A stretch of 64,000 nt of DNA from positions 22,073-86,072 of the forward strand of contig JAXHNE010000003.1 in NCBI GenBank assembly GCA_034520885.1, given 5' to 3'. Shown in pieces: positions 5,205 through 63,752 of the stretch. Numbering within the stretch: position 1 is the stretch's first letter; every line of letters begins with the position of its first letter. The stretch is from Candidatus Saccharimonadota bacterium. GTDB lineage: Bacteria > Patescibacteriota > Saccharimonadia > Saccharimonadales > JAXHNE01. A program made the position numbers and the translations under genes. Below the pieces are notes generated by a model. The model did no database searches. It was not told the origin of the DNA and saw only the letters and a program-made list of their open reading frames with translations.

Positions 5205-5233
5205 TTGACTATTGCCGATCGTTTGCGTACTAT
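5205..5233 (+). promoter_or_regulatory. sigma70-like promoter upstream of secE-nusG
   Basis: TTGACT (5205-5210), 17-nt spacer, TACTAT (5228-5233). Confidence 0.35.
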
Positions 5234-5327: not shown

Positions 5328-5726
5328 GTGGCAGACAAAAAGAAACGGACGGTCAAAAGGAGCGAAACTTTACGCGAGCGCAGCCAAAAGGAAGCGTCCA
5401 AGTCCGACAAACCTACCAAACGGCGGCGAGTGGTCAAAACCGCTTCCAAGCCCATAAAGGGAGCTTCCAAAGCCGGACGCAAAGAGTACCACCCGTTCAA
5501 ACTTCCCGATAATAAATTCGGACGTCGGTTGAATAAGCGAGCTCACATTATGCCGAAGTACTTCCGTGAAGCCTGGGAGGAAATCAAGCAAGTGGAGTGG
5601 CCGGACGCCCGGGAAACTACCAAACTGACTACCGCGGTGATCGTGTTCGCCTTGGTGCTCGGAGCGGTCGTGTACGTACTCGACTTCGGATTGAATAAAA
5701 TATTCAGAGAGGTGTTATTAGGATAG
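5328..5726 (+). CDS. secE: preprotein translocase subunit SecE with long basic N-terminal extension
   Basis: C-terminal WPDARETTKLTTAVIVFALVLGAVVYVLDFGLNKIF (single TM). GTG start after an AGGGAG RBS; lies immediately upstream of nusG. Confidence 0.8.
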   Translation: MADKKKRTVKRSETLRERSQKEASKSDKPTKRRRVVKTASKPIKGASKAGRKEYHPFKLPDNKFGRRLNKRAHIMPKYFREAWEEIKQVEWPDARETTKLTTAVIVFALVLGAVVYVLDFGLNKIFREVLLG

Positions 5727-5802: not shown

Positions 5803-6345
5803 ATGGCAAAACGATACGATTCACAAAAACAGTGGTACGCGATCCACACTTATAGCGGATACGAAGAAAAGGTCGCGGAAAGCATCCGCCAACGCGCGGA
5901 AAGCTTGGACATGAACGACAAGATCTTTCAGATTATCGTACCCAAGGAAAAGATGATCGAGGTCAAAAACGGCAAGCGCCGCGTGGTGGAGAAGAAAATC
6001 TTCCAAGGCTACGTCATCGTGGAAATGAAAATGAGCGAAGACGCCTGGTACATCGTGCGCAATACGCCGTCGGTCACCGGTTTCGTGGGCTCCGGCAGCG
6101 AACCGACGCCGATCGGGCAGGACGAAGTCGACAAAATCCTAAAACGCATGGGCCGCGAAGAACCCAAGCACAAGATCGACTTCAAAGAAGGCGAAGTGGT
6201 CAACATTACCGACGGGCCGTTCAAAGGTTTCGACGGCACCATTAACGAAGTCGACGAAGCCAAAGGTAAACTGAAAGTCCTAGTCAACATGTTCGGCCGC
6301 GAAACACCGGTAGAACTCGACAGCTTACAAGTAAAGCGAGTGTAA
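5803..6345 (+). CDS. nusG: transcription termination/antitermination factor NusG
   Basis: NGN domain (WYAIHTYSGYEEKV) and KOW motif (GEVVNITDGPFKGFDGTINEVD). Confidence 0.95.
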   Translation: MAKRYDSQKQWYAIHTYSGYEEKVAESIRQRAESLDMNDKIFQIIVPKEKMIEVKNGKRRVVEKKIFQGYVIVEMKMSEDAWYIVRNTPSVTGFVGSGSEPTPIGQDEVDKILKRMGREEPKHKIDFKEGEVVNITDGPFKGFDGTINEVDEAKGKLKVLVNMFGRETPVELDSLQVKRV

Positions 6346-6349
6346 AATG
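6308..6349 (+). repeat. nusG 3'-end repeat, copy 1 (the functional nusG end plus the next ATG)
   Basis: CGGTAGAACTCGACAGCTTACAAGTAAAGCGAGTGTAAAATG, identical over 42 bp to 7147-7188. Confidence 0.9.
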
Positions 6350-6637
6350 AGCCAAGAAAAACCTACTAGTCTAAATGGTGCACTACATTTACGTTTTATG
6401 ACACCTTCTAGCGAAGAGTTTGAGTATTGTGATACGGACTCTGTAATAATTGGAGCACTCCAGAAAGATCCTGAGCAAACTCTAGATACGATTACAGGTG
6501 TTCGCAACTGGGCTGAAGAACATGCCTGCACTACAGATGCAGGGATTCGTATAATTTCAAGGTTGATCGATGCCAGTATCGGTAACTATGAAGGCAGTAG
6601 AACTCGACAGCCTCCAAGTAAAACGAGTTTAGCATGA
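6347..6637 (+). CDS. hypothetical protein (orphan, 96 aa)
   Basis: ATG lies 1 nt after the nusG stop. More AT-rich than flanks by eye; no recognisable motif. Confidence 0.4.
   Translation: MSQEKPTSLNGALHLRFMTPSSEEFEYCDTDSVIIGALQKDPEQTLDTITGVRNWAEEHACTTDAGIRIISRLIDASIGNYEGSRTRQPPSKTSLA
6597..6636 (+). repeat. nusG 3'-end repeat, copy 2 (diverged)
   Basis: GTAGAACTCGACAGCCTCCAAGTAAAACGAGTTTAGCATG. There are six differences from copy 1. In the NusG frame it still reads VELDSLQVKRV-stop, preceded by ATG AAG GCA. Confidence 0.85.
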
Positions 6638-6873
6638 ATATATTGAATAGAAATCTTGAAAGAGACCCACGCAGTGGTTTTTCGTGGCGTGAAGCCCGAA
6701 TCGAGGCTGAGGTCGGAGCTATAGCAATCGCAATGTCGCCATTAGGGCTCGTTGAAGGAGGTGGTGGTCCTATCGCCACTGTTTTAATGGCAGGGGTGGG
6801 TGCGCTAGCTATTGGCCACGGTCTAAACCAGCTGCGGAATCTCGATGAATGGGATAGAAGACAGCGGGGGTAA
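6634..6873 (+). CDS. hypothetical small membrane protein (79 aa, Gly/Ala-rich helices)
   Basis: ATGA stop-start overlap with the previous ORF; hydrophobic core AIAIAMSPLGLVEGGGGPIATVLMAGVGALAIGHG. Confidence 0.4.
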   Translation: MNILNRNLERDPRSGFSWREARIEAEVGAIAIAMSPLGLVEGGGGPIATVLMAGVGALAIGHGLNQLRNLDEWDRRQRG

Positions 6874-6875
6874 AA

Positions 6876-7184
6876 ATGGCAAATTCTGCTGATATTTTAG
6901 AAAAAGCCAAAGGTTATCTGATGAGCATGGAGTATGAAAACAGGGGTCGCCCGGGTGAAACTTATGAGCGCGCTATGGGTATCAGTGACATATGGCTTTG
7001 TGAGGAAATTGATGATGCATTCGAGAGAGGCGACTTAGATGCAATTAGGAACATCGGAGCGGCTGCATTCACCCGTCGATTTCAGACGGATTCTTCACCA
7101 AGTATTATCCGAACCGGTGCCGCGTTTAGTTTAGCAACTAAGAAGGCGGTAGAACTCGACAGCTTACAAGTAAAGCGAGTGTAA
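6876..7184 (+). CDS. hypothetical protein (102 aa) ending in the NusG C-terminal peptide
   Basis: The C-terminus ...KKAVELDSLQVKRV is encoded by repeat copy 3. Confidence 0.4.
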   Translation: MANSADILEKAKGYLMSMEYENRGRPGETYERAMGISDIWLCEEIDDAFERGDLDAIRNIGAAAFTRRFQTDSSPSIIRTGAAFSLATKKAVELDSLQVKRV

Positions 7185-7188
7185 AATG
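7147..7188 (+). repeat. nusG 3'-end repeat, copy 3
   Basis: 42/42 identical to 6308-6349, including TAA-A-ATG. Confidence 0.9.
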
Positions 7189-7548
7189 CCGTACCCAGAA
7201 GGCCCTCCTATTCGTAAAGAGGTTCATCAAAATGATTTTGAGATTCCTGACTGGGTGAACCAAGGCAGCACTCTTGACTTTGAAGAGCTGGAGTTTGGAG
7301 ATTTATGGAACGAACTTTCTACTAACCGTCAAAGAGCATTAAAGATATTTGGCAGTGCTGTTACCACATTTGCTGGCTTTACTATGATCTACTATGACGT
7401 CATGAATGATGGTGTGCTATCTGCCGTTTCTGGTTCAATAGGTAGTCCAACTGTGTTCGGGAGTACGGTGTATGGTATGTGGCACGGATGTATCTTACTG
7501 GCAGACAAGATGGCTGACTTCACTAGCCAAGATCGCAAACATGGATGA
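7186..7548 (+). CDS. hypothetical membrane protein (120 aa)
   Basis: ATG lies 1 nt after the preceding stop (same context as after nusG); hydrophobic segments FGSAVTTFAGFTMIYY and GSTVYGMWHGCILL. Confidence 0.4.
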   Translation: MPYPEGPPIRKEVHQNDFEIPDWVNQGSTLDFEELEFGDLWNELSTNRQRALKIFGSAVTTFAGFTMIYYDVMNDGVLSAVSGSIGSPTVFGSTVYGMWHGCILLADKMADFTSQDRKHG

Positions 7549-7888
7549 AGCGTATAGGAATACGCTCGAGAATGTAGAGGCATACTTTGCAGACGTTTTT
7601 CCAGGTGCATTTATAAATATCGAGGACATTCCAATGCCTGCCGCGCAATTAATTAACCTAACCCAAGCTGGGTTCGGTGCAGCTGAGGTTGTTCTTCCGA
7701 GTGGTGACGAAGTTATAGCAACATTCGTGATCGATGAAGAAACAATCGCCGCGAAGGCAATTTCAAGCATCTATGATGCTGAACAAGAAGGCTTGCTTGC
7801 TCCAGGTATTCACGACAAAGCTATGGATGACATCGCAAGAGGCACATTTCACTCACGCTGGGCTGACTTTATCTCCCACAAACAGTAA
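7541..7888 (+). CDS. hypothetical acidic protein (115 aa)
   Basis: In-frame ATG at 7541 gives an ATGGATGA overlap with the previous stop; the ORF track gives a longer version from 7472. Confidence 0.4.
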   Translation: MDEAYRNTLENVEAYFADVFPGAFINIEDIPMPAAQLINLTQAGFGAAEVVLPSGDEVIATFVIDEETIAAKAISSIYDAEQEGLLAPGIHDKAMDDIARGTFHSRWADFISHKQ

Positions 7889-8066
7889 GTAACTAGAGTG
7901 AATATATGTGCACGAGGCTAGACAACGGGGGTGATTTGTAGTACAATTGTGCAGTTACGCACCAGCGACATAGATGTCGCCGTTGTCAGTTGTCTGTCGT
8001 CAGTTATCTGTGAACTAACTGAATACGGAGTACTGATTACTGACTACTAACTTACGGAGTAAATTT

Positions 8067-8498
8067 ATGGCAAAAAAGATCACCGCCAATTTAAAGATGA
8101 AAATTCCCGCTGGGAAGGCCAATGCCGGTCCGCCCGTGGGTTCCACGCTCGGGCAATACGGCGTGAATATGATGGATTTCGTAAATCCGTTCAATGAACA
8201 AACCAAAGACATGGGGAACATCACCGTCACGGCACACATCACCGTGTACGAGGACCGCAGCATGGATTTCCGCATAGTCGGCGAACCGACGGACGATAAA
8301 ATCCGTCGCGTATTAGGCGTGGACAAAGGCTCCGGTACGCCCAATACCGAGAAATTGGATAAAAAGCTTACCGACGCCCAAGTGACCGAAATCGCCGAAG
8401 AAAAGGCCGAGGACATGAACACCACCGATGTAGAAGCCGTAAAGAAAATGGTCGCCGGAACCGCCCGCAGCATGGGCGTGGTGATTGAGGGTAGATGA
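8067..8498 (+). CDS. rplK: 50S ribosomal protein L11
   Basis: MAKKITANLKMKIPAGKANAGPPVGSTLGQYGVNMMDF... matches the canonical L11 N-terminus. Confidence 0.95.
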   Translation: MAKKITANLKMKIPAGKANAGPPVGSTLGQYGVNMMDFVNPFNEQTKDMGNITVTAHITVYEDRSMDFRIVGEPTDDKIRRVLGVDKGSGTPNTEKLDKKLTDAQVTEIAEEKAEDMNTTDVEAVKKMVAGTARSMGVVIEGR

Positions 8499-9232
8499 CT
8501 CACGAAGTAAACTCACCAGAATTTTTTGGGCTTCACCCAGGAGACGAAGGTTATGATACTTTCGCGGACGATTTTCCAGTCGGAGAGAACGGTGTTGCCG
8601 ACTACCGCACCTCTGATTTCGAGATGGGACATGACGTTGGAACGATGGTGTTACGCGATATAGTGCATCAGCACTGGAGTATTGCTAATGTCCACTTTGG
8701 TTACGCGGATATGGATACAAGCCAATACGAGTTCAATAATGGCACTGGTTTCCAGGTGCCACCACTTAGGCCAGAAACGAAGCAAGAGTTCGATAAAATT
8801 CGAAGGGAAATAGATCAACAAAGCCAGGAAATTCACGCACGTCGAAAAGGGCCGGGTTTCAGGTTTGTCCAAGAACGACCAACTCAACACGAAGCACTTT
8901 TGTTGAAAGCAAATAGGCTGCTTGAGAGAATTCAGGCTTTAGACGATCCCGAAGAACGGTCACCCGAGTTAACTGAGATCATTAAAAAAGAACTCAAGCA
9001 GCGAGGGGTGGATTATCTTGAGAAATTGTATGGTTGCGATGTAGCGCAACTTTCAGACGAAGACCGGGAAGTCTTGACAGCAACGAAAAATGCGCTGCGT
9101 ACAAGGGGCGTGTACTTAAAACCAGATTATCTTATGACCGTTAAAGCAAATCAGAAACCTGGAAAACCCGTTGGTAAGGAGCACGAACCCGTCTCTGACG
9201 ATTTAGCTTGGGAACTGATTTATCAAGATTAA
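8495..9232 (+). CDS. hypothetical protein (245 aa) inserted between rplK and rplA
   Basis: ATGA overlap with the rplK stop; no recognisable domain; more AT-rich than neighbours by eye. Confidence 0.45.
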   Translation: MTHEVNSPEFFGLHPGDEGYDTFADDFPVGENGVADYRTSDFEMGHDVGTMVLRDIVHQHWSIANVHFGYADMDTSQYEFNNGTGFQVPPLRPETKQEFDKIRREIDQQSQEIHARRKGPGFRFVQERPTQHEALLLKANRLLERIQALDDPEERSPELTEIIKKELKQRGVDYLEKLYGCDVAQLSDEDREVLTATKNALRTRGVYLKPDYLMTVKANQKPGKPVGKEHEPVSDDLAWELIYQD

Positions 9233-9339
9233 TAAATAATTTTTGTGGGAGCCGTCCTATGCGTAAAGCTACGGAGGCGATTGAACCACGACCCCAGTAG
9301 TAAGCCATGCTACGTACGGGGCAGGAAGGAGTAATAATT

Positions 9340-10302
9340 ATGGCAAAGACGAAAGCGGACTTACTGGCCGAGGCGAAAGAGCTGGGGCTGGATTTGAGTG
9401 AAAAATTAAAGGTAGCGGAAATTGCCGCCGAAATAAAAGCCGCGAAGACCGTGCCGACCGCCAAAGCCGGAAAGCGCAGTAGCAAAGGCATCAAAGAGGC
9501 CGCGGAAAAAGAAGCCAAGCTGGAGCTTCAACAAGAAGGCGACAAAGAAGCCGACGAAGAAGCAGGCAAACCTAAGCAGCCCGTAAAACCGGCGCGGCCT
9601 AAGCTGGAACGCCAAGGCAAGAAGCATCGCGAAGCCGCAAAACTAGTAGAAAAGGGCAAAAACTACGCCCTGAAACCGGCCGCCGAACTTTTACCCAAAA
9701 TTTCTACCGCTAAATTCGACGCGACCGCGGAACTGCACATTCGTTTGAACGTTGATCCCAAGCAGTCCGATCAAAACATTCGTGATCAAGTCGTTTTACC
9801 GGCCGGAACCGGAAAAGACGTTCGCGTGGCGGTATTCGGTGAAGACGCCGAAGTTGCCACGGCCAAAAAAGCCGGGGCGGAAGTAGCCGGGGGAGACAGC
9901 TTGCTTGCTAAACTCGATAAAGGTGAATTTGACTTCGATGTGTTAATTGCCAGCCCGAAAGTAATGGCCAAACTGGGCAAATATGCCCGCCAACTCGGAC
10001 CGAAAGGTTTAATGCCCAACCCGAAGAGCGGTACGGTTTCTACCGATATTGAAAAGGCCGTCACGGAAGCCAAGGCCGGGCGCGTGGAGTACCGGGTAGA
10101 CGAAGCCGGTATCGTACACGTCGCTTTCGGAAAAGTGAGTTTCGGTGCCGATAAATTGCTGGAAAACCTCCAGGCCATCCTGCGCAGCATTAAAAACAAT
10201 AAGCCGGGAAGCATCAAAGGTTCGTATATTTCCAGCGCTTTCGTAACCGTAAGCATGGGGCCGTCCGTGAAGCTGGACATCAGCGAAATAAACGCTTTGT
10301 AA
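9340..10302 (+). CDS. rplA: 50S ribosomal protein L1 with about 95-aa Lys/Ala/Glu-rich N-terminal extension
   Basis: Start chosen at the ATG after GGAAGGAG (the track ORF starts at 9307). Canonical L1 core from ...GKKHREAAKLVEKGKNYALKPAAELLPKISTAKFDATAELHIRL. Confidence 0.9.
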   Translation: MAKTKADLLAEAKELGLDLSEKLKVAEIAAEIKAAKTVPTAKAGKRSSKGIKEAAEKEAKLELQQEGDKEADEEAGKPKQPVKPARPKLERQGKKHREAAKLVEKGKNYALKPAAELLPKISTAKFDATAELHIRLNVDPKQSDQNIRDQVVLPAGTGKDVRVAVFGEDAEVATAKKAGAEVAGGDSLLAKLDKGEFDFDVLIASPKVMAKLGKYARQLGPKGLMPNPKSGTVSTDIEKAVTEAKAGRVEYRVDEAGIVHVAFGKVSFGADKLLENLQAILRSIKNNKPGSIKGSYISSAFVTVSMGPSVKLDISEINAL

Positions 10303-10306
10303 TAAC

Positions 10307-10330
10307 TGTTATATAACTAGTTATATAACA
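10307..10330. repeat. 24-bp perfect palindrome TGTTATATAACTAGTTATATAACA, copy 1
   Basis: Self-complementary by inspection; starts 5 nt after the rplA stop. Confidence 0.9.
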
Positions 10331-10445
10331 GTTTATAGTTGTCAGTCTTCAGTTGTCCGTTCTCAGTCTTCAATCAGCAGATTACAGACAACAAATCACG
10401 GATAACAATTCAAAATATGAAAACTGGCGCCAAACGGTTCAAATA

Positions 10446-10904: not shown

Positions 10905-11165
10905 CAACTACCACCCCTCATCTATCGCCTATCATCCATCAACTATCAATCCTCATCTATTGCGACGAAGTCGCTCGCCATCTTCCACCTTCCAAATTCC
11001 ATCTTCCACCTACCAACTACCACCTACTAACTACCACTCATCTATCATCCATTGCGACGAAGTCGCCTACCACCTACTAACTTCCATATTCCAACTTCTA
11101 CCCTCTAACCTCTAACCTCTAACGTCTACCCTCTAGCATCTAACCCTTAAAACCTATAAACTAAC
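10905..11165 (+). repeat. G-depleted tract with 7-nt periodicity, interrupted by two GCGACGAAGTCGC hairpins
   Basis: CCA recurs every 7 nt from 10978 to about 11036. CTA recurs every 7 nt from 11098 to 11163. ATTGCGACGAAGTCGC occurs twice (about 10959-10974 and about 11051-11066). Confidence 0.8.
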
Positions 11166-11728: not shown

Positions 11729-12502
11729 GTGTTTTTCAAAATGATCGTACTGGGAATGACCGGGCCGATTAGTCACGGCAAAACCACCTTCGCCGAAGCC
11801 CTTGAAGAACTGGAGCCCAAAACCATCCACCTGGAGTCCAGTATCGTGATCGCGCGGGTGGCCAATGCCATGCACGCCGTTTTGGAGCGCGTGCCCGATC
11901 CGTACGATATCCAAGATTTGAACGAATGGCTGAAGCATCTGCCCCGAATTTTAAAAGAAACCGTCCACACCGACGCTACTTTCGAGCAACTTCGCCTGGA
12001 TCAAGCCAGTATCGAACAGCACCCGGTAGAGTATCAAAAACTGATTATTCACGTTGAACAACTGCGTAAAGACCCGGGGCTAGCGCGCCAGGCAATAACG
12101 ATTGACAATAAAGAAACGTATCGACCGTTTTTGCAGTGGCTGGGCGGTTATCTCGTGCAAAAAGTCGATTCCGACATCTGGTTCAACGAAATCGTTCGCA
12201 TGATGTACGAGGCCGAGTCCACCGGTGTGAAGCTGTGTATTATTGGTGGTTTACGTTTTCCCAACGATGCCGCGGCCATTCGCCACGCCGGCGGGCAAAT
12301 CGTAAAAGTCTATCGGCCCGGACATTTGCAAAACGACATGCTGGATCCGACGGAACGGGAACGTGATAATATTCCGGTGGACTGTACGATTATGAGTAAC
12401 GGCACCGTAGAAGACGTTAAAGTCTGTGCCAAACACGTACTGGAAGATATTCGCAATAATCGCTTGTCCTCGTTATACCAAACCAAACGCGAAAATACCT
12501 AA
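11729..12502 (+). CDS. P-loop nucleotide/nucleoside-monophosphate kinase-like protein
   Basis: N-terminal MIVLGMTGPISHGKTTFAE Walker A; sits inside a deoxypyrimidine gene cluster. The start could be the internal ATG at 11741. Confidence 0.45.
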   Translation: MFFKMIVLGMTGPISHGKTTFAEALEELEPKTIHLESSIVIARVANAMHAVLERVPDPYDIQDLNEWLKHLPRILKETVHTDATFEQLRLDQASIEQHPVEYQKLIIHVEQLRKDPGLARQAITIDNKETYRPFLQWLGGYLVQKVDSDIWFNEIVRMMYEAESTGVKLCIIGGLRFPNDAAAIRHAGGQIVKVYRPGHLQNDMLDPTERERDNIPVDCTIMSNGTVEDVKVCAKHVLEDIRNNRLSSLYQTKRENT

Positions 12503-12603
12503 GCATAAGCTTATTGGATAATATTACAACGCTTTTGACAATTTTTTACTTGCCGATTCCTCTGTTAGTTAGCTACACTGGTAGTCAAACGCGGAGGTAA
12601 CGT

Positions 12604-13317
12604 TTGGGAGTTTATAGTAATAAACAAATTCGTGAGGCGATAGAAAACGAGCATATTGTCTGCGTGCCGTTTAATCCGAGACACGTCAGCCATGCCAGTA
12701 TGGACGTAACACTGGGGTATTACTTTTATCAAACCGACCAGGCCAAAAAAGGCTATGTCTACAATCCGTTCGATGAAGCCGACGTCCGGCGCTATTTCGG
12801 AGAGGTACAGCAAGCAGTGCCGCACAAGGACTGGTGTGCCGCCAACGGCGTACGTTTACTCGAAGGCGTCCCGGGAGATCACCCGGTAATCCCGCTCGGC
12901 CCGGGAGAGCGAATCCTGGCTCACACCCACGAGTTCTTCGGTATCAAGCCGCCGGGAGCGTACGAGGTGAAATCCCGTTCCAGCTGGGGGCGCAACGGCA
13001 TCGCGGTATGTTTTGACGCCGGCTGGGTCGACCCGGGGTATATTAATCGCTTAACCCTGGAAATTTATAACTTGAACGAACACGAAACAGTGCTGCTTCC
13101 GGTCGGCGAACGAATCGCCCAGGCGGTCTTCTTAGAAACCGGTGAGGTCGAAGGCAACTACGGCGAAGGGCGTGACGACGGTATGAGCGGTAAGTACCAA
13201 ACCGGCACCAACCTGGAAGAGCTGATTTCCGGATGGACGCCGGAGCAGATGCTTCCCAAAGCGTACAAGGACAAGCGTTCTCTCCCGGGAGTGATAAAGG
13301 GTTTAAAAGCCCGGTAA
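12604..13317 (+). CDS. dcd: dCTP deaminase (dUTPase-fold)
   Basis: TTG start; motifs SMDVTLG, GWVDPGYINRLTLEIYN, VGERIAQAVF typical of the Dcd family. Confidence 0.8.
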   Translation: MGVYSNKQIREAIENEHIVCVPFNPRHVSHASMDVTLGYYFYQTDQAKKGYVYNPFDEADVRRYFGEVQQAVPHKDWCAANGVRLLEGVPGDHPVIPLGPGERILAHTHEFFGIKPPGAYEVKSRSSWGRNGIAVCFDAGWVDPGYINRLTLEIYNLNEHETVLLPVGERIAQAVFLETGEVEGNYGEGRDDGMSGKYQTGTNLEELISGWTPEQMLPKAYKDKRSLPGVIKGLKAR

Positions 13318-13394
13318 CCCCCGTTAAAAACGGTGATGGAGATTTATATGAGTCAGGACACGAGCAAACAAACACGGAAAGGGCCTTTAGCGGG

Positions 13395-15740
13395 ATGACA
13401 CAAGCCGAGGAACAAGGTGTGTTTTTTGTTATTGAAGGAACTGACGGTTCCGGCAAAGGTACTCAGTTTCAAAAATTAGCGGAACGGTTAAGCGGTGAAG
13501 GCTACGACGTCGCCACCTTTGACTTTCCGCGGTACGACCAACCCTCCAGCTATTTCGTACGTGAATATTTAAACGGCAATTACGGCTCCGCGGAAAATGT
13601 CGGCCCTTACACCGGTTCACTGTTTTACGCTTTGGATCGTTACGCGGCCGCCCGGCACATACGCGAAGCGTTAAACCAAGGCAAGATCGTACTGGCCAAC
13701 CGTTTCAGCGGCTCTAACATGGCGCACCAAGGAACGAAGTTCCAACACAGCGAAGAACGGCGCGGCTATTTCATTTGGCTGGATAATTTGGAATTCCAGA
13801 TGCTGGACATTCCGCGCCCGACCAAGTCGTTCGTGCTGCGCGTTCCGGCGGATATCGCCCAAAAACTGGTCGACCAAAAGGGCAAGCGCGAATATACCGA
13901 CAAAAAACGCGATTTGCACGAGGCAGATATTGACCACTTGCGAAAATCGGTAGAGGTGTTCGACGAACTGTGCGAACTCTTCCCCAGGGATTTTCAGCGG
14001 ATAGATTGCGTGCGGGATAAAAAGTTGATGGACGTTGAGCGGGTACACGAACAACTGTATAAAACCATTGAGTCGTATCTGCCCAAACCGAACGAAAAGC
14101 CTGGCTCTCAAGACTCCAAAGCGGCAAAAACGGAAGTCAAAACTACCAAGGGCGACGTTGAATACGTCACCAAGGATGACGAAGGCATTTACCGCATGAC
14201 GAAAGCCGGCGAGGATTACTTAAGTGATATCGTTACCAGCACCGAAGATAACGTCTACGCTTTTACCGAGGAACTGCCGCCATTGACCATTTCCGCGGCC
14301 ATGGCCCGCCTCTCACGCCGGGGTGACGATATGCGCGTGACCATTTTGGACGAGTTCACGCACGCCGCGCAAAAGGACGAAAAACTGCTTAAAAAGGTGA
14401 TCACCGCTTACGGGGACGACTCCGTGCAGCAGCTCGTCGGGCAACACGTCGTGGTGGAGGAAGCCTCCAACCTGCTGACAAAAAAGCTGGAATGGGGGCG
14501 TTTGGCGGCCTATTTGGAGCAGTCCACGCGCTACATTTACTTTGATCAGAAGGATCGCCGCGGTAAATACAAATATGTCGTACCCGATCACTTCGATGAA
14601 CCCACCAAAACGGCGTACGTAAAATCCATGGACACTATTTTTGACGGGTATTCCAAGCTGGTACGCCAACTGACCGATTATATTCGCGGCAAGGACAAAA
14701 CGCCGGAAAAAGAGCGTGACGGGGCGTGGAAAGGCGCGACGCGAGCCCAGGCCTGTGATGCCGCCCGCCCGCTGTTACCGGTGGCCACCAAGTCCACGGT
14801 GGGTATTTACGCCTCCGGACAGGCACTGGAAAGCCTGATCATGCACTTAATGGCCGACGAACTCCCGGAAGCCAAACGAACCGGTGAAAAACTCCTCAAG
14901 CACGCCCGCGAAGTCATCCCCACGTTTTTGGAAAGAGCCGACAAGCCGGATCGTGGCGGAGCCACCATTGCTTATTTGGCGAACACGCGAAAAGGCGTTG
15001 CCGAACTAGCCAAAAAAGAACTCCCGGAAAACTATGCCCCGGAAACCGAGGCGGTCACTCTTAATTCGCACTGGCCGAAAAATGAGCTCGACCTGGTGCC
15101 GGATATGCTTTATGAACACAGCAGCTTGCCGCTGGAAGACATTAAAAACGAAGTCCGCACCTGGCCGATCGATAAAAAATACGAAGTGTTCGACGCTTAC
15201 GTGGGCGAACGCCTGAATCGGCGGCACAAGCCGGGGCGAGCCATTGAAAAAGCGCATTACAGTTGGGATTTGGTGTGTGATTACGGGATTTTCCGTGATT
15301 TGCAGCGGCACCGCATGGTGGATGATTTGAATTGGCAAATACTTACGCCGCGTTACGGATATGACACGCCAAATATCGTGGAAGAAGCCGGTTTGAGCGA
15401 TCTGTTCCTGGCTTGTTTCGACGAAAGCCTAAAACTCTACAGCGCGCTACAATCCGCCGGTTACGAGCACGAAGCGCAATACGCCACGCTACTGGGGCAC
15501 AAAATGCGCTGGAAAGTGACTTACAACGCCCGTGAGGCCTTCCACTTGCACGAACTACGCACCAGCCCGCAAGGACACCCCGGGTATCGCAAACTCGTAA
15601 AAGAAATGCACGACAAGCTGTGCGAAGTCCACCCCGTACTTGGCGAAGCCATGAAATTCGTCAACAAAGGCGAAGATCCCGAATTATCGCGTCTAGCCGC
15701 GGAGCGCTACACCCAATTCAAGCTAAAAAACCTGTCTTAG
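13395..15740 (+). CDS. fusion protein: thymidylate kinase (N-terminal) plus duplicated ThyX-like FAD-dependent thymidylate synthase (C-terminal)
   Basis: The Tmk part carries FFVIEGTDGSGKGTQ and DRY. The ThyX-like halves carry AAYLEQSTRY, LQRHRMV...TPRYG and HLHELRTSPQGHPGYR. Start set at the in-frame ATG 13395 because the track ORF (13233) overlaps the dcd end. Confidence 0.7.
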   Translation: MTQAEEQGVFFVIEGTDGSGKGTQFQKLAERLSGEGYDVATFDFPRYDQPSSYFVREYLNGNYGSAENVGPYTGSLFYALDRYAAARHIREALNQGKIVLANRFSGSNMAHQGTKFQHSEERRGYFIWLDNLEFQMLDIPRPTKSFVLRVPADIAQKLVDQKGKREYTDKKRDLHEADIDHLRKSVEVFDELCELFPRDFQRIDCVRDKKLMDVERVHEQLYKTIESYLPKPNEKPGSQDSKAAKTEVKTTKGDVEYVTKDDEGIYRMTKAGEDYLSDIVTSTEDNVYAFTEELPPLTISAAMARLSRRGDDMRVTILDEFTHAAQKDEKLLKKVITAYGDDSVQQLVGQHVVVEEASNLLTKKLEWGRLAAYLEQSTRYIYFDQKDRRGKYKYVVPDHFDEPTKTAYVKSMDTIFDGYSKLVRQLTDYIRGKDKTPEKERDGAWKGATRAQACDAARPLLPVATKSTVGIYASGQALESLIMHLMADELPEAKRTGEKLLKHAREVIPTFLERADKPDRGGATIAYLANTRKGVAELAKKELPENYAPETEAVTLNSHWPKNELDLVPDMLYEHSSLPLEDIKNEVRTWPIDKKYEVFDAYVGERLNRRHKPGRAIEKAHYSWDLVCDYGIFRDLQRHRMVDDLNWQILTPRYGYDTPNIVEEAGLSDLFLACFDESLKLYSALQSAGYEHEAQYATLLGHKMRWKVTYNAREAFHLHELRTSPQGHPGYRKLVKEMHDKLCEVHPVLGEAMKFVNKGEDPELSRLAAERYTQFKLKNLS
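15711..15739 (+). repeat. 3'-end repeat of the tmk-thyX gene, copy 1 (functional end)
   Basis: ACCCAATTCAAGCTAAAAAACCTGTCTTA. Confidence 0.9.
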
Positions 15741-15874: not shown

Positions 15875-15903
15875 ACCCAATTCAAGCTAAAAAACCTGTC
15901 TTA
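15875..15903 (+). repeat. 3'-end repeat of the tmk-thyX gene, copy 2 (orphan)
   Basis: Identical 29 bp, preceded by ATG and followed by A, giving the mini-ORF MTQFKLKNLS-stop. Confidence 0.9.
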
Positions 15904-15912: not shown

Positions 15913-16371
15913 TTAGTCAGCTAGAGTAAGCAGGTCTTCGCGGACGCTTTCACTGGTTTCTGGTAATCGATGTGACAATACGGAAAAATTGGATGCATCG
16001 TCGATGAATCCCGTTTGGGTTGCCATTGGGCCGATACATTCAATTACTCTGAGCGTTCTTTCGCTTTCCGGATCGTAAAGATCAATCGCACCGGATATTG
16101 TGGATGGAGCTTCGAAAGTGTTTTCAGCTTCCTCGATTCCGTGAGATCGAAGATTCATGATCAAAGAAAGCCACACCTTATTGGAGACTGCTTCCGGATT
16201 GGCTACCCGAGGAAAGTGCCCAATATTAGCACTGGCTTGTTTCGTTTGGTCATTTCTAATTGCCTTAACGACTCTGTCAATTCGTTCATGCAATGGGGAA
16301 ATGTCGATTTCACCTTCCGGAGACGGTATTTCAATGCCATATTGTAGATACGGGTCATTCTCGATATTCAT
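15913..16371 (-). CDS. hypothetical protein (152 aa)
   Basis: ORF with a GAGGAAG RBS; no recognisable motif. Confidence 0.45.
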   Translation of the reverse strand: MNIENDPYLQYGIEIPSPEGEIDISPLHERIDRVVKAIRNDQTKQASANIGHFPRVANPEAVSNKVWLSLIMNLRSHGIEEAENTFEAPSTISGAIDLYDPESERTLRVIECIGPMATQTGFIDDASNFSVLSHRLPETSESVREDLLTLAD

Positions 16372-17215: not shown

Positions 17216-17728
17216 ATGACAACTGTACTCCCATCATCAAGAGAAGTATTAGAGAGTCAAGACCCTGGAGACTTCAAGGTAAAACAAAAAACACCAACCG
17301 AAAGATTGCTAGAAGACGATCCCATGCTGATTTTTAAATTGACGAAGCTAGCGGGTTTGGCAGGTTTTCGTGTTGAACCCACGAGAAACAACGACGGCAT
17401 GTCTAAACAGCAGCGACACGGCCAAAACGAACACAGGAGAAAATACGCGCAGGTTAGCTCCGTAACGGACCGAGTTCATGAAAGACTTGAGGGGTTTGCG
17501 TTATCGGACGACCAAATGGATCAGATCCGTCAGTTTGAAAACGGTTTTTTTCCAGCGGGCTGCGATTTTGACGATAAGGAACGTGAAACGGTGAGAAGTG
17601 GGGCCGAAAATGACGAGTTCTTGGCCTTGAGCTACGAATACTTGCCAGAGCCACAATTAGAACCGCGGGTAAATAAGTCGATTTCACACGCGGCACGGTT
17701 GGCGATAATCAATCAACACAGTGATTAA
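17216..17728 (+). CDS. hypothetical protein (170 aa)
   Basis: GAAAGGAAA RBS; no motif recognised. Confidence 0.45.
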   Translation: MTTVLPSSREVLESQDPGDFKVKQKTPTERLLEDDPMLIFKLTKLAGLAGFRVEPTRNNDGMSKQQRHGQNEHRRKYAQVSSVTDRVHERLEGFALSDDQMDQIRQFENGFFPAGCDFDDKERETVRSGAENDEFLALSYEYLPEPQLEPRVNKSISHAARLAIINQHSD

Positions 17729-19042: not shown

Positions 19043-19195
19043 CTCGACTAGGCGTAGATCCCGCCGCATTTCTGAGTGGAGCGATAAGCAATCTGATCGT
19101 GAAACTTCACGAAATGCAGCGGTGACCGGAGCGACCGTAGAACTAGCGTAGCTAGTTCAGCAACTAGTAACTAGAAATTAGGAACTAGCCAAAAA

Positions 19196-33481: not shown

Positions 33482-35020
33482 TTAATTTACGGTTAATGGG
33501 GCGTGGCCAAGTGGTAAGGCACCAGTTTTTGGTACTGGCATTCGCAGGTTCGAATCCTGCCGCCCCAGCCAAGAAGGATTTTCAGATTTTTCAGACAGAA
33601 CGCGCCAGCGATCGCCAAAGGCGAGGCTGGCGTTTTTGTTGGTCAGGTGGCGGTTCGTTCCGATTTTTCCGACAAACGATTTGATTTCATCATAATCGTT
33701 TGAAACAGCCAGTTTTTCAGCGTGGTGAGCGTCTCGAACCCATTGTTTCAATGGTTCGATCCAATTGTTCCCCTTTTGCCCAAAATCGGCTTTCTTTTGT
33801 TTCAAAGCCAATTTCTGCTTGATAAGCTCGTCTTTCTTGGCGAGGTAAACTTGTTTTTCAATGTTGCCGTCCAAGAATTCATTGACGAGCTTGTCCAGCT
33901 TGGTTTCGGTGGCTTTGATGCGTTCTTCAAGATTTTGAGCAAAAGCCTGCGAAGACTGGCTATTTTCCTTTCCCCAGACATCAATCTGCGCCAGCATCTT
34001 TTCTTGCCAGTCTTCGCTGATAGCAACTTTTGAGATTAACGACTTTAACTGCTCCAGCAATTTATCATCTCGCACATAGCCCTGCGAGCAAGGCACAAGC
34101 CGTTTCGAACAGCGATAGTAGGCATAAGTCCCACCGTTGCCACGAGCATATTGCGCCGTGATTGCCGCACCGCACTCACCACAAGTAAAAAGTCCGGTAA
34201 ACGGAAAGTTATGACTACGCTTGCTCTTTCTCGGCTTGGCCTTGGTCTTTAACACCTTTTGCACTTTCTCAAAAGTTGCTATGGGAACAATTGGCGGAAA
34301 ATCGCCCTCGTATACTTCGCCATTTCGCTTGATAAGCCCGATATACACAGGATTTATTAGGGTCCTCTGCATCATCGATTGGCTAAGCGGTTTTCCGCTG
34401 GCGCTCACCACGCCCCAAAAACTCAGGCGCTGGCGCAGACTCTCCAGACTGTGTCTGCCATCAGAATATTCTTCAAAAGCTCGTTTGAGTATGCGAGCCT
34501 TCACAGAGTCAAGTTCAATGTTGTGTGTCTTGAGATTGTTGACATAACCAATGGGAGCTTTACCAGGCCACTCGCCGCGCCTGAGTTTTTGGCGAATCCC
34601 ACGCTTTACATTCTCCGACAGGTTGTCGGAGTAATATTTACTTTGTCCAAAGGCCACTTGGAGCATAAACAAGCCTTGCGGAGTTGGCTCAAACCAAAAG
34701 GTTGGAAAGCGCAAAGCAACAATTTTGCCAGTGTCTATGCTGTAAATGATCTGCCCGCCATCCATACTATTTCTAGCTAGTCGGTCAGGATGCCAGGCCA
34801 GTATCCCGACTGGCTGTTTACTCTCGTGTATTTTAGCGATCATTTCGTTAAAGACAGGTCGGCCTGGTTGCTTTGCGCTTCTGCTCTCGGTGAAAGTTTC
34901 GGCAATGGCGATATTCTCTCGCTTAGCAAAGTCCGCCAACTCCGCAAGCTGCGCCTCTATGCTCATAACCTGGCGTTCTTCGTCCTCGCTGGACTTTCTG
35001 GCATAGAGAAAATACTTCAT
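33482..35020 (-). CDS. large serine recombinase (true C-terminus uncertain)
   Basis: Catalytic N-terminus MKYFLYARKSSEDEERQ, recombinase domain, Zn-ribbon CGECG...YYRCS, then a coiled coil. The last roughly 55 codons are read from IR-A and antisense tRNA-Gln. Confidence 0.85.
   Translation of the reverse strand: MKYFLYARKSSEDEERQVMSIEAQLAELADFAKRENIAIAETFTESRSAKQPGRPVFNEMIAKIHESKQPVGILAWHPDRLARNSMDGGQIIYSIDTGKIVALRFPTFWFEPTPQGLFMLQVAFGQSKYYSDNLSENVKRGIRQKLRRGEWPGKAPIGYVNNLKTHNIELDSVKARILKRAFEEYSDGRHSLESLRQRLSFWGVVSASGKPLSQSMMQRTLINPVYIGLIKRNGEVYEGDFPPIVPIATFEKVQKVLKTKAKPRKSKRSHNFPFTGLFTCGECGAAITAQYARGNGGTYAYYRCSKRLVPCSQGYVRDDKLLEQLKSLISKVAISEDWQEKMLAQIDVWGKENSQSSQAFAQNLEERIKATETKLDKLVNEFLDGNIEKQVYLAKKDELIKQKLALKQKKADFGQKGNNWIEPLKQWVRDAHHAEKLAVSNDYDEIKSFVGKIGTNRHLTNKNASLAFGDRWRVLSEKSENPSWLGRQDSNLRMPVPKTGALPLGHAPLTVN
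33497..33571 (+). tRNA. trnQ: tRNA-Gln (anticodon TTG), CCA encoded
   Basis: TGGGGCGTGGCCAAGTGGTAAGGCACCAGTTTTTGGTACTGGCATTCGCAGGTTCGAATCCTGCCGCCCCAGCCA. Anticodon stem CCAGT/ACTGG with loop TTTTGGT, T-arm GCAGG-TTCGAAT-CCTGC. Confidence 0.9.
33566..33657. repeat. IR-A left arm (92 bp)
   Basis: Perfect reverse complement of 35139-35230 by hand comparison; includes the last 6 nt of tRNA-Gln. Confidence 0.9.
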
Positions 35021-35138
35021 TTGTTTATGCTCCTAGTCCGTAAAGCGTGGGGTTAAAAACTGTCTGTTTAGTGTCGCTTGCGACGCTTTGGAAAAATCGG
35101 AATACAAAAACTTGTTTTTGTGCGTTGCCCGGCAACGC

Positions 35139-35230
35139 CGAACCGCCACCTGACCAACAAAAACGCCAGCCTCGCCTTTGGCGATCGCTGGCGCGTTCTG
35201 TCTGAAAAATCTGAAAATCCTTCTTGGCTG
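35139..35230. repeat. IR-A right arm (92 bp)
   Basis: Reverse complement of 33566-33657. It is an inverted copy of the recombinase 3' end placed upstream of the recombinase start. Confidence 0.9.
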
Positions 35231-35404
35231 CAGTTGTTGAATGAAGCTCGAACCCTGTTCGAGCGAGATAATTAAATCCCGCCCTGCGGCTCCGCCCGCT
35301 GGCATAGCCAGCGGCCCAAACCAAAAGATTTTTCTTCATGATTGTTTTGAATTTCGGCGGGTGGTTTTTTCTTTTTAATTGAATTCGAAAAATATTTTGG
35401 TTTG
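35225..35404. repeat. IR-B left arm (180 bp)
   Basis: Perfect reverse complement of 39099-39278; its outer end TGGCTG overlaps the IR-A right arm. Confidence 0.9.
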
Positions 35405-35507
35405 ACGAGCCGACCTTACAATAGTCCCATTCTTCTGGTAACATTGTAATGTAGTTTGAGGCCAATTTTCTCATTCCACCCATACAATTTAATGTTACTA
35501 TTTCAAT

Positions 35508-35699: not shown

Positions 35700-35701
35700 T
35701 T

Positions 35702-36337: not shown

Positions 36338-36339
36338 TA

Positions 36340-45468: not shown

Positions 45469-45493
45469 TGTATGTGGGTATCGTTGGGAAAAG

Positions 45494-59884: not shown

Positions 59885-61524
<1,640 letters not shown>

Positions 61525-61532
<8 letters not shown>

Positions 61533-62256
61533 CGGCTTCCTCCATAGTTTCGTCCAAATCTTCCGTTTTGGATGTACTAATCGCAGCCGCAAAGCGTGCG
61601 CCTTCGACAAACTCATCATAATAATTACCGACTAACTGCGCTGAAGCAAACCTGCCTCTCTTACGAATATGCTCCTCTTCTTTGGTGCGTACATAGTCCT
61701 CGGCCGCCTCGACAAACTCGAGCGCCCCAGGGGCGAGACACGCAAGGTCAACTTCTGGGAATGCTCGTGACAGAATACCTTTATTTTCAACGGCTGGCCC
61801 CGGTTCATCCGCACCCGAACTTTCCTCAGGCGCGGTTACTAACTCGCCGTGCAAGACATCTTCAGCATTTTGAGATTCAACGTATTCATTATGCTTTGCC
61901 TGCATCGCTTCCATTATTAACAGCTCTTGGCGCGTCGACAAACATTGCGGTTCAATACCGCCTTGATCCGCGCGGCCACAAATAATATTTACGAGCTCGT
62001 TCCTTTCAAGCTGGGAAAGTTCAGTAGTGTCAACCGGCGCGTCAAGTAAGCCCACGTAGTGATAGGCGCTCACCACAAGTTCAGCTTCTTGTTCGCTCAA
62101 TCCAAGATATCGAGGAGTCGAGTCATCATCCTCATAACCAAGAATACCTATCGCCTCCTTAAAAGGGGGGAGGGAGTCGGTTTCTGAGGTCGCTGGAGAA
62201 GGCGGCATGTATGGCAAATCCGGATCAACTGGAAAATGCATGCTTTCAATACCCAT
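61525..62256 (-). CDS. hypothetical acidic protein (243 aa)
   Basis: ORF of good length; no motif recognised. Confidence 0.45.
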
Positions 62257-62275
62257 TACGCGTCCTCCATGTCTT

Positions 62276-62461
62276 CTATGTCAGGAAAGATATCACCCCC
62301 AATAAGTCCTGCGGCATCCCCATTTTTAAGCGCGAGCATGTACGCACCAAGTTGCCGCGACGTTTGTTCTGGACGCCGCCGGATAAGTCGCTCGGAACAT
62401 TGGGTAGTGGAGTAGGTACCGTAATGGACGTTTTATCCGAACCAAAAACTTCGCCTCTCAT
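62276..62461 (-). CDS. hypothetical small protein (61 aa)
   Basis: ATGA overlap with the stop of the preceding ORF, in the same context as the atpG stop. Confidence 0.3.
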   Translation of the reverse strand: MRGEVFGSDKTSITVPTPLPNVPSDLSGGVQNKRRGNLVRTCSRLKMGMPQDLLGVISFLT

Positions 62462-62489
62462 TTCATGGCCTCCACTGCACCTGTTAGCT
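62457..62489 (-). repeat. atpG 3'-end repeat, orphan copy
   Basis: CTCATTTCATGGCCTCC (plus strand) is identical over 17 nt to 62885-62901, followed by about 16 nt of partial identity. Confidence 0.8.
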
Positions 62490-62889
62490 CCACGTAACGG
62501 TGAACTTTTCTTGCGCTTGCTAAAACATCCCCAAAAACACGAATTGCTTGTACTCTTGTTATTGCTGCCTCGTCAGGGAACTCAACATCAACCATATCTT
62601 TAAGTAGATTACCCGTAAATAATTCTACTGCTGTTTCTTTGTACTCGGTGTCCGCTGTCGTATCAAGGACGCCGACAGCACCCTGAAACGCAGCACAGAG
62701 TATTTGCTCAGGATCGATTTCTATGTCATAGACACCTTGTGTTTCAAGTCGTTCATCACACGTTGCAGCAAAAAACTCCCGTGCTATTCCATCCATTTGC
62801 TCCACTAATGTATCCGTAAAGTACGTCTGCGGCATCAACCTTTCATATGTATGCCTTAATTGAAACAACGTTGTGTCCCCGTCACTCAT
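62458..62889 (-). CDS. hypothetical protein (143 aa) ending in an AtpG-like C-terminal peptide
   Basis: C-terminus ELTGAVEAMK, compared with AtpG EITGGAEAMK; ATGA overlap with the atpG stop. Confidence 0.45.
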   Translation of the reverse strand: MSDGDTTLFQLRHTYERLMPQTYFTDTLVEQMDGIAREFFAATCDERLETQGVYDIEIDPEQILCAAFQGAVGVLDTTADTEYKETAVELFTGNLLKDMVDVEFPDEAAITRVQAIRVFGDVLASARKVHRYVELTGAVEAMK

Positions 62890-62917
62890 TTCATGGCCTC
62901 CGCTCCGCCGGTTATTT
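62885..62917 (-). repeat. atpG 3'-end repeat, functional copy
   Basis: See the orphan copy at 62457-62489. Confidence 0.8.
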
Positions 62918-63752
62918 CGGCCAGTTCTTGGGTGATCGCCGCTTGCCGGGCGGTGTTGAATTCCAGCGTTAAATCATCCACCAAATCGTTAGCGTTATCC
63001 GTGGCGTTCTTCATGGCGTTGCGGCGCATGGATTGCTCGCTGGCCTGCGCTTCGTAAAACGCTTGGCTCAAAAGCAGTTCGATAAATCGTTCGGTGACCG
63101 CGTCCAGGACTTTGTCCGGGCTCGGTTCAAAAATGGCTTTTTCTTCCTGGTCTTCTTTTGTGGTGGGTTCGAACACCGCGGGGAGCAAGCGAAGCGTTTC
63201 GACTTCCTGCAGTAAGCTGGTTTTAAAATCGGTATAGGTTACGTCCACGGCGTCGGCTCGTTCTTCTTTGAAGGCCGCCAGTAACTCCTTAAGAATCGGG
63301 CGAATGTCCGCGGCTGTGGGCTTTTCGGGGAAGCCGTCGTAAGCCGCTATTACCTCAACGCCGTCCAGCTTGGCCACGAAACGCTGGCCTTGTTTGCCAA
63401 TAACAATGACTTGGCTTTTGCGTCCTAAGTCGCGATCTTCCACCAACTCTTTGGTGAAGGCTTTGAACAGGTTACTGTTGAGCGCTCCGGCCAGGCCGCG
63501 ATCCGAGCTGATCAAAATGTGCAGGCGAGTGTTAATGGCGCGTTGCTTGTACAGCGGGTGCTGCGTGACGTCGGTTAGCTCGCTCAAACGATTTAACAAA
63601 TCAATAGCCATATTACGGAACGCGCGGGAACGCGCGGCATGTTCTTGCGCCCGGCGCATTTTGCTAGCGGACACCAGCTCCATGGCCTTCGTTATCTGTT
63701 TGGTGTTTTTGACTGACGTGATTCGCCTTTTTAGAGCCGTTGTATTAGCCAT
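62886..63752 (-). CDS. atpG: F0F1 ATP synthase subunit gamma
   Basis: MANTTALKRRITSVKNTKQITKAMELVSASKMRRAQ...ITQELAEITGGAEAMK. Confidence 0.95.
   Translation of the reverse strand: MANTTALKRRITSVKNTKQITKAMELVSASKMRRAQEHAARSRAFRNMAIDLLNRLSELTDVTQHPLYKQRAINTRLHILISSDRGLAGALNSNLFKAFTKELVEDRDLGRKSQVIVIGKQGQRFVAKLDGVEVIAAYDGFPEKPTAADIRPILKELLAAFKEERADAVDVTYTDFKTSLLQEVETLRLLPAVFEPTTKEDQEEKAIFEPSPDKVLDAVTERFIELLLSQAFYEAQASEQSMRRNAMKNATDNANDLVDDLTLEFNTARQAAITQELAEITGGAEAMK

Follow-up and report, generated by a model that had tools for sequence, protein, structure and literature searches.

How does a new gene come to stand directly behind the stop codon of an essential gene that stays intact? The nusG locus of a Saccharimonadales (TM7) metagenome-assembled genome (MAG), recovered from a short-read metagenome, raises this question, because five orphan open reading frames (ORFs), o1 to o5, lie there between nusG and rplK, and copies of the nusG 3′ end recur among them. 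The stretch analysed here, called the window, comprises 64,000 nucleotides of contig JAXHNE010000003.1 (assembly GCA_034520885.1). Patescibacteria have genomes of roughly 1 Mb with many orphan genes of unknown origin. The locus shows positions that such genes take, right behind the stop codons of essential operon genes, and its duplicated tail/start junctions, one of which seems to hold another lineage's nusG allele, are a footprint of how orphans may arrive. We propose, tentatively and short of conviction, that the nusG-rplK block is a cassette array, added to the 3′ end of secE-nusG when a short, duplicated junction recombined. Searches of the literature gave no account of such an arrangement in Saccharibacteria.

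For comparison we used 160 nusG-centred Saccharimonadales loci (80 genomes and 80 metagenome contigs, 2.0 Mb in total). The window NusG is 84-97% identical to NusG of the genomes and 84-91% identical to that of the metagenome contigs, the nearest being 97% and 91% identical, respectively, with synonymous sites saturated. The window and its relatives have a common gene order: secE, nusG, rplK, rplA, a NUDIX gene, two conserved genes, a tmk-thyX fusion, the L10 leader, rplJ and rplL.

Copies of the nusG terminus among five orphan ORFs

The nusG gene (5803..6345, + strand, 180 amino acids (aa)) ends in VELDSLQVKRV, a C-terminus nearly invariant in relatives. The first repeat, R1 (6308..6349, +), comprises the last 38 nt of nusG with its TAA stop, an A and the ATG that starts o1. 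We found that R3 (7147..7188, +), which ends in the ATG of o4, is identical to it at 42/42 nt, in agreement with an earlier, sequence-only reading of this DNA; the probability of a chance match of this kind in 64 kb is negligible. Between them lies R2 (6595..6636, +), a diverged copy of the nusG tail followed by a TAG stop, a C and the ATG of o2. Over 6597-6636 it differs from R1 at 6 of 40 nt (TTA>CTC, AAG>AAA, GTG>GTT, TAA>TAG and A>C in the spacer), it reads VELDSLQVKRV-stop in the NusG frame, and the preceding ATG AAG GCA gives a mini-ORF (6588-6632). Most of this had been described before, and the left end of the copy has moved, by 2 nt to 6595, once CCA-Pro alleles are allowed. The five coding differences between R2 and R1 are all synonymous (P about 4e-4 for random substitutions), and R2 is 2 mismatches from the real nusG tails of two relatives (L012 and L074). 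Synonymous-only change and closeness to the nusG tails of other species suggest that R2 evolved as a working nusG end, as the earlier reading had held. It looks like a former nusG terminus, from another lineage or from an earlier resident allele, that recombination brought in or displaced.

R2 and R3 start at the identical nucleotide inside a nusG Pro codon (C|CR GTA). Furthermore, both carry an 11-nt upstream arm, J (AACTAWGAAGG), as J1 (6584..6594, +; AACTATGAAGG) and J2 (7136..7146, +; AACTAAGAAGG), which agree at 10/11 nt. The arm is not nusG sequence, and no further copy was found in the window and none in the 160 loci. A near-match at 59480 lies on the wrong strand inside an ORF and was taken as chance. 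The shared breakpoint and arm therefore indicate a common site of about 53 nt, common by descent and carried by the cassettes.

The orphans lie on a single strand and fill 6347-7888 between nusG and the rplK promoter. The first, o1 (6347..6637, +, 96 aa), runs through J1 and R2 in a different frame, and o2 (6634..6873, +, 79 aa) is a putative small membrane protein with two hydrophobic segments. The last 15 residues of o3 (6876..7184, +, 102 aa) come from J2 and R3 (…TKKAVELDSLQVKRV), the third copy being fused to it in frame, and the start ATG of the next ORF stands directly after every copy, both points noted before. No family match was found for o4 (7186..7548, +, 120 aa), and the acidic o5 (7541..7888, +, 115 aa) is the orphan nearest to the promoter-like site of rplK. 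The chaining of these ORFs by 1-nt gaps or by ATGA and ATGGATGA overlaps held generally (gaps of 1 nt from nusG to o1 and from o3 to o4, an ATGA overlap of o1 with o2, and a ATGGATGA overlap of o4 with o5), but the gap from o2 to o3 is 2 nt and not the 1 nt that had been implied. The impression by eye of a block richer in AT than its flanks proved right: the GC content of o1-o5 is 0.42-0.51 versus 0.51-0.53 in nusG and rplK, and their GC content at third codon positions is 0.28-0.41 versus 0.66-0.69, with 0.62 pooled over twelve core genes. Most orphans are strongly acidic.

Upstream, secE (5328..5726, +), kept in 157/160 related loci, is the first gene of the secE-nusG transcription unit and has a promoter-like site at 5205-5233. 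Downstream, the conserved flank is rplK (L11; 8067..8498, +), for which a promoter-like site, TAGACA-17-TACAAT (7919..7947, +), is the best match of the region at 10/12 and is a consensus match only. Since this site lies between o5 and rplK, the array seems to prolong the secE-nusG transcription unit at its 3′ end.

Scans of o1-o5 against Pfam, PHROG, PADLOC and NCBIfam gave zero matches. Single-sequence AlphaFold2 models were poor (predicted local distance difference test scores of 39 and 61, the latter for o5), and Foldseek against PDB gave no hit with E below 0.9. The only database match of o3 was an identical NCBI protein, U5L95_01010 ('Candidatus Saccharibacteria bacterium' MAG). Exact-protein look-ups for NusG, o1, o2, tmk-thyX and the protein P0002 gave no match, and those for RplK and o5 found them in one Logan sample only. 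We also considered a phage or plasmid origin of the cassettes and rejected it, as o4 and o245, an orphan located behind rplK, had no relatives among IMG/VR viral contigs and blastn of the nusG-rplK block against phage and plasmid collections gave no match.

Two of the five have relatives at the same position elsewhere. A homologue of o1, 50% identical, stands directly after the nusG stop (TAA C ATG) in L003, the nusG locus of GCA_041600755.1, and a homologue of o5, 47% identical, is the sole gene of the nusG-rplK gap in L017, with a weaker match in L117; o2 has no homologue within the 160 loci. The proportion of nonsynonymous differences (pN) is 0.40 against a synonymous proportion (pS) of 0.71 for the o1 pair, and 0.39 against 0.87 for the o5 pair. 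The existence of homologues, together with pN of about 0.4 against pS of 0.7-0.9, argues that o1 and o5 are real, fast-evolving proteins. The relatives that hold o5 homologues have 87-88% NusG identity and the one that holds the o1 homologue has 94%, and o5 is probably the oldest occupant of the gap.

The position behind nusG in related genomes

We examined the gap between nusG and rplK in the 134 related loci holding both genes, counting ORFs of at least 35 aa. The gap ranges from 25 to 4388 bp, and its ORFs fall into 313 families, 285 of them singletons; the two-member families are mostly one genome sampled twice. The first gap ORF begins 6 nt or less from the nusG stop in 37 of 92 loci, and the three closest relatives (L001, L002 and L003) each have a different gene in the gap. 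The spread of gap lengths, the singleton families and the ORFs close to the nusG stop therefore show that the position right after this stop is a clade-wide hotspot for lineage-specific, tightly abutted ORFs. The content of the gap is clearly not fixed in synteny among the relatives, and the window array strings together genes that occupy it in other species.

Duplication of the nusG tail itself was sought in the 2.0 Mb of relatives with three scans, based on the last 10 aa plus stop (at least 7/10 matching), on 18-nt ORF ends, and on perfect repeats, 16 nt or longer, that lie at the stop codons of long ORFs. These scans found no genuine case in the 160 loci; an apparent one in L012 was rejected as an intergenic 26-nt repeat on a spurious ORF. 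The same three scans recovered nusG, tmk-thyX and atpG in the window, and atpG in a related genome described below (L163).

Similar junctions at tmk-thyX and atpG

The sequence-only reading had placed the same signature at two further genes, and both were found to carry it. The tmk-thyX fusion (13233-15740, +, 835 aa; Pfam Thymidylate_kin and Thy1; present in 79/160 loci) ends in a perfect direct repeat of its last 29 nt (15711..15739, +), of which the second copy (15875..15903, +; 29/29 nt, preceded by ATG) lies 164 nt downstream, so that the two copies bracket a 135-nt insert. At atpG, on the minus strand, the tail (62885..62918, EITGGAEAMK-stop) contains the junction core GGAGGCCATGAAATGAG (62885-62901). 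The orphan a143 (62457..62889, −) begins in this first junction copy with an ATGA overlap and ends in a second one (ELTGAVEAMK-stop, core 62457-62473). The 17-nt core is perfect in both copies and lies within a diverged 34-nt copy of the tail. Three further orphans without family match, a61, a243 and a110 (61287..62461, −), are chained from a143 to atpD, and a143 overlaps a61 by the same stop/start arrangement by which atpG overlaps a143. With GGAGG, 7 nt and an ATG overlapping TGA, the atpG junction has the features predicted of a textbook coupling signal. A possible copy of the rplL tail (TGATVELA-stop; 19125..19151, +), its first base 83 nt past the rplL stop, is followed by a terminator-like hairpin; it is 18/27 nt identical, with 6/9 differences at third codon positions, and is weak evidence.

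A full HMMER search against 1.84 billion representatives found one homologue of a143, the protein P0004 (36% identical), which ends in an AtpG-like tail (…GLTDGAEAMK) and sits in the atp operon of GCA_041600755.1 (L163), the genome that also provided L003. There the order is atpG, orf158 (…SEAMK-stop), P0004, orf74, orf84 and atpD, and the junction CGGAGGCTATGAAATGAGCG occurs in three copies with a repeat length of 20-25 nt. Copies 1 and 2 are identical over 25 nt, which include the first four codons (MSER) of orf158 and P0004. L163 is thus arranged as atpG-junction-orf158-junction-P0004-junction versus atpG-junction-a143-junction in the window, one cassette more (orf158 plus junction), with breakpoints exactly in the repeats. 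The body of orf158 is open from the duplicated start to the duplicated tail, 158 codons without a stop, and the gene lies directly after atpG, upstream of the common a143/P0004 gene. Elsewhere in the same operon of L163, orphans of 111 and 151 aa stand between atpA and atpG (7873-8668) and an 83-aa orphan between atpD and atpC (12368-12619). Orphans across the atp operon in both genomes therefore mean that operon-wide orphan insertion is common to the two; the individual genes are not. The junction footprint, rare or short-lived at nusG, is yet common to both genomes examined at atpG.

To see the arrangement in an independent assembly, we used two Logan k=31 contigs from SRR26473340. One of them (L161) equals window 7159-10333 at 100% and reproduces R3-o4-o5-rplK; it sets in 12 nt into R3, with 30 nt of that repeat still to come, because a 31-mer graph must branch at a 42-nt repeat. 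The other (L162) covers atpG-a143-a61 at 100% identity. The k=31 graph fits the integrated array as well as it fits nusG-R-o4 plus an 839-bp circle.

A proposed route of insertion

By a junction we mean the last 17-42 nt of a conserved upstream gene together with its stop codon and the start codon of the ORF that follows. In the proposed route, a cassette consisting of cargo and one junction copy would travel as a small circle excised by repeat-by-repeat recombination or, alternatively, within transforming DNA of a relative already holding a repeat-cargo-repeat unit. It would recombine with the resident junction through short homology, either by a single crossover with the small circle (junction plus cargo) or, after DNA uptake from a relative, by a double crossover in which nusG serves as the long arm and the second repeat as the short arm. 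The product would read conserved gene, junction, new cargo, junction, old cargo. The essential gene would keep an intact terminus, older cassettes would be shoved downstream, and new ORFs would use the duplicated start codon as well as the duplicated tail and stop. At nusG, a crossover in J and the 15-nt block common to J1-R2 and J2-R3 would yield R1 equal to R3 with R2 different.

Several observations agree with such a route. Each site repeats the tail of its own gene and the repeat lengths differ, so homology fits and a single enzyme with a single target does not. Repeats that include the next start codon, and cassette bodies that read from duplicated start to duplicated tail, are what a single or double crossover would be expected to leave. 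In addition, the distal place of o5, which has homologues in more distant relatives, the proximal place of o1 and the position of orf158 next to atpG fit insertion beside the conserved gene. The serial insertion of cassettes at the nusG stop, as the sequence-only reading pictured it, has thus gained support from the hotspot in 134 loci, the o1 and o5 homologues after nusG elsewhere and the cassette indel at atpG, with the order of events and the mechanism as yet hypothetical. We infer a dependence on homology (RecA or short-homology), a circular intermediate and uptake by natural transformation. Saccharibacteria are naturally competent (PMC10633639), competence being known from cultivated members only.

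Since every junction keeps the same stop/start geometry, each ORF may be translated by termination-reinitiation behind nusG; the presumed translational coupling is judged from this geometry alone. The survival of such insertions is probably explained by the intact essential gene together with the kept stop/start context. If the route is real, new genes would be expressed at once without promoters of their own, and it would account for the nusG-rplK gap being one of the most variable places in otherwise syntenic genomes. It would also offer a simple gene-insertion design for cultivable competent Saccharibacteria, with cargo placed between 30-40-nt tail repeats.

A number of points weigh against recombination at the duplicated junction. 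The species was found in one sample, and no circular form, empty site or strain polymorphism was seen. With 17-42 nt, the homology just reaches or falls short of the length usually needed for efficient RecA recombination, and the longest perfect block common to R1 and R2 is only 15 nt. Junction duplication was found at none of the 160 nusG loci of relatives, so the process must be rare, confined to certain lineages or soon effaced. Repeats are absent from the flanks of most neighbouring orphans (o245, a243, a110 and a96). The model does not account for the origin of the first duplicated junction, and the common arm J, which implies a shared cassette end, could instead mean a dedicated recombinase elsewhere in the genome.

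Alternative explanations

Homology-facilitated illegitimate recombination is documented in competent bacteria, and the repeats could be its products: donor DNA of a relative, comprising nusG with a tail and downstream genes of its own, would be anchored in nusG during transformation and join at its far end inside the resident nusG tail, so that this tail is duplicated and no downstream DNA is deleted, and selection would keep joins with an intact nusG and start context. We consider this doubtful as an account of the array. The competence of Saccharibacteria (PMC10633639) speaks for it, as does its ability to cover the foreign-allele tails (R2 and the atpG and rplL copies), the variable repeat lengths and the absence of a recombinase; moreover, the adjacency of nusG and the o1 homologue in L003 is what such a donor would carry. 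Two independent joins, however, should not share a nusG breakpoint and 10/11 donor-side nucleotides, as J1 and J2 do, and an ORF such as orf158 that reads exactly from duplicated start to duplicated tail over 158 codons would be rare with random breakpoints.

The precise common boundary of R2 and R3 and the conserved arm J are also what would be expected of a dedicated enzyme acting in trans, either a site-specific recombinase on J-R-like sites (integron or pdif type) or an integrase or transposase making long staggered cuts, in which case the repeats would be target-site duplications. Cassettes without a recombinase of their own are found in integrons as well, and the layout of ORF followed by repeat resembles attC arrays. 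Against this, we found no recombinase in or beside any of the three or four sites in Pfam scans of neighbouring ORFs and of the 64-kb window, nor a tyrosine recombinase (IntI type) in the scans of neighbouring ORFs, nor a transposase or Cas1 enzyme for casposon- or CRISPR (clustered regularly interspaced short palindromic repeats)-type insertion at the sites. The sole recombinase in 64 kb is of the large serine type, which leaves no long direct repeats, and lies at 33482-35020 in an unrelated tRNA-Gln island; the statement that no integrase is adjacent was accordingly upheld. DNA folds of both strands of R1, J1-R2 and J2-R3 showed no attC-like hairpin, scoring no better than shuffled sequences (z +0.04 to −1.2). 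There are no terminal inverted repeats, and the left ends of the cassettes share no sequence. The repeats are wholly different between sites, and their lengths are not fixed: 17 nt for the atpG core of the window, 20-25 nt for atpG of L163, 29 nt for tmk-thyX and 42 nt for nusG. Furthermore, pure target-site duplication would need a later replacement of the allele to account for a synonymously diverged R2. A single site-specific enzyme is therefore unlikely, given a separate tail for each locus, varying lengths and the lack of hairpins, inverted termini and a nearby integrase, and the wider idea of a trans-acting enzyme is, in our estimation, distinctly improbable.

We regard as similarly improbable a local tandem duplication of the junction and the following gene, followed by rapid divergence or by de novo ORFs, with the tails kept as translation-initiation region. 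That a143 and P0004 keep the junction core at 36% identity indicates that the core is under selection, and the core holds the GGAGG, 7 nt and ATG overlapping TGA; both orf158 and P0004 begin MSER(I/L)V, and orphans evolve fast. Yet the 42/42 identity of R1 and R3 makes any such duplication recent, and o1-o3 show no detectable similarity to o4-o5. Paralogy among the cassettes was rejected, since neither an all-against-all BLASTP nor a tblastn search of the remaining array with o1 and its L003 homologue as queries found anything; orf158 and P0004 are likewise unrelated by BLASTP. That the ORFs flanked by perfect repeats are unrelated makes tandem duplication unlikely. In addition, the homologues of o1 and o5 occur singly behind nusG elsewhere and so are independent genes rather than local paralogues, and R2 is a different nusG allele.

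Finally, an assembly artefact, in which the MAG would falsely join strain variants or collapsed repeats, is very unlikely indeed: the MAG comes from short reads, the 42-nt repeat makes the k=31 Logan graph branch within it and the 839-bp circle is an alternative resolution, but the 29-nt tmk-thyX repeat, R2 and the copy at atpG are too short or too diverged to confuse an assembler, the independent contig L162 spans atpG-a143-a61, copies are fused in frame to ORFs, and another genome from another study has the same architecture at atpG.

Comparison with known systems

The nearest parallel to recombination at a duplicated junction is the displacement of rhs C-terminal regions and the resulting orphan-tip arrays, for which the published model has units excised as a small circle and inserted again, both through homologous recombination limited to closely related alleles (PMC2935791, Jackson et al. 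2009). As in rhs and contact-dependent growth inhibition arrays, new units here would stand beside the conserved gene with older ones shunted downstream, and no dedicated recombinase would be involved. The units also retain a fragment of the 3′ region of the conserved gene in the same orientation, downstream of the intact gene, as seen in R2 and R3 of nusG and in the atpG and tmk-thyX copies. Unlike in those arrays, the host genes nusG, atpG and tmk-thyX are housekeeping genes and not polymorphic toxins, the repeat holds a stop and the next start so that the cargo consists of separate ORFs instead of a swapped C-terminal domain, and the homologous stretch, at 17-42 nt, is much shorter. Scans of the cargo with Pfam, PADLOC and NCBIfam revealed neither toxin nor immunity domains.

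Elements such as phage 21 and e14 in icd, and the staphylococcal cassette chromosome SCCmec at rlmH, insert at the 3′ end of a gene with a replacement end, leaving flanking direct repeats of the gene terminus and an intact target gene. The element-borne gene end differs synonymously, and SCC composites form tandem arrays with several repeat copies. Such elements extend over kilobases, and they carry or require a specific integrase (Int or Ccr). The nusG locus resembles them in that direct repeats containing the terminus regenerate the gene and R2 is synonymously changed. It differs from them in the size of the cassettes (0.13-0.8 kb), in having no integrase at the sites, and in the involvement of several genes of one genome, each with its own tail.

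With integrons and clusters of attC sites lacking integron-integrases (CALINs), the array has in common promoterless, mostly orphan ORFs, each followed by a repeat, insertion at a fixed site and expression from an upstream promoter. Unlike integrons, it has neither IntI nor attC hairpins, and its repeat is host coding sequence specific to the locus. CALINs are without IntI by definition, so the absence of IntI alone does not exclude one. Insertion of the transposon, casposon or CRISPR type differs from what we found, since the sites have no fixed duplication length, no conserved termini and no such enzyme.

Minimal mobile elements of Neisseria, a transformable group, are differing whole-gene cassettes between the same two conserved genes, their exchange being attributed to homologous recombination in the flanks (PMC3787668). 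In a similar way, the nusG-rplK gap holds different cassettes across the 134 loci (285/313 families singletons). Minimal mobile elements, in contrast, replace each other and do not stack, and neither a duplicated gene tail nor translational chaining occurs in them. Taken together, the nusG locus is neither an integron, a transposon nor a conventional integrative element, and seems to work like a displacement array acting on housekeeping genes. If the proposed route is correct, the displacement principle of rhs extends from toxin loci to housekeeping operons. A broader notion is that recombinase-free mobile 'ORF circles', their start and stop overlapping inside a mimic of the host junction, plug into essential Patescibacteria operons by short homology, leave the essential gene intact, are expressed by ribosome relay, and form a general route of orphan acquisition and turnover in ultra-small genomes. 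In this general form the idea is speculative and rather unlikely to hold.

Other features of the window

The orphan o245 (8495..9232, +), between rplK and rplA, overlaps rplK by ATGA and has no repeat; different orphans occupy its position in relatives. The window rplK has one extra codon (…EGR-stop), which creates this overlap. Repeat-less orphans stand between conserved genes at 8495-9232 (rplK/rplA), at 59454-59744 on the minus strand (atpD/atpC), and at 15913-16371 (−) and 17216-17728 (tmk-thyX/rplJ). Such orphans are often joined by ATGA or TAATG overlaps, and L001, L003 and L163 differ at the same positions.

The large serine recombinase gene (33482-35020, −) overlaps tRNA-Gln (33497-33571) with its 3′ end. 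The surrounding island (33482-39710) also contains an HNH endonuclease (35702-36337), an 878-aa AAA_13 ATPase (36340-38976) and a small GIY-YIG nuclease (39402-39710), and resembles a mobile or defence island that has no relation to the nusG cassettes. A second, 'gutted' copy of the GIY-YIG gene and its flanks (39273-39755) lies at 42000-42174, where the flanks are joined and the ORF body is gone; one match of 37 nt is perfect, another of 29 nt reaches 90% and a third of 60 nt reaches 83%. Enclosed by the two copies are an orphan (39975-40637), an S-adenosylmethionine (SAM) riboswitch (40897-40996) and metA/HTS (41035-41958).

A near-perfect palindrome, GTGTTATATAACTAGTTATATAACA, occurs in five copies (10305-10337, 44508-44540, 45492-45524, 50255-50287 and 57087-57119). 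They lie at gene ends, namely after rplA, around a heliorhodopsin gene (44617-45378; Pfam E-value 2e-87) and elsewhere, and contig L161 ends inside one of them. The palindrome may act as an operator or as a bidirectional terminator. The stretch 10953-11123, which separates rplA from the NUDIX gene, contains TCATCYATTGCGACGAAGTCGC twice, each time followed by C-rich tracts of CCA/CTA type, and the GC skew falls there to −0.5.

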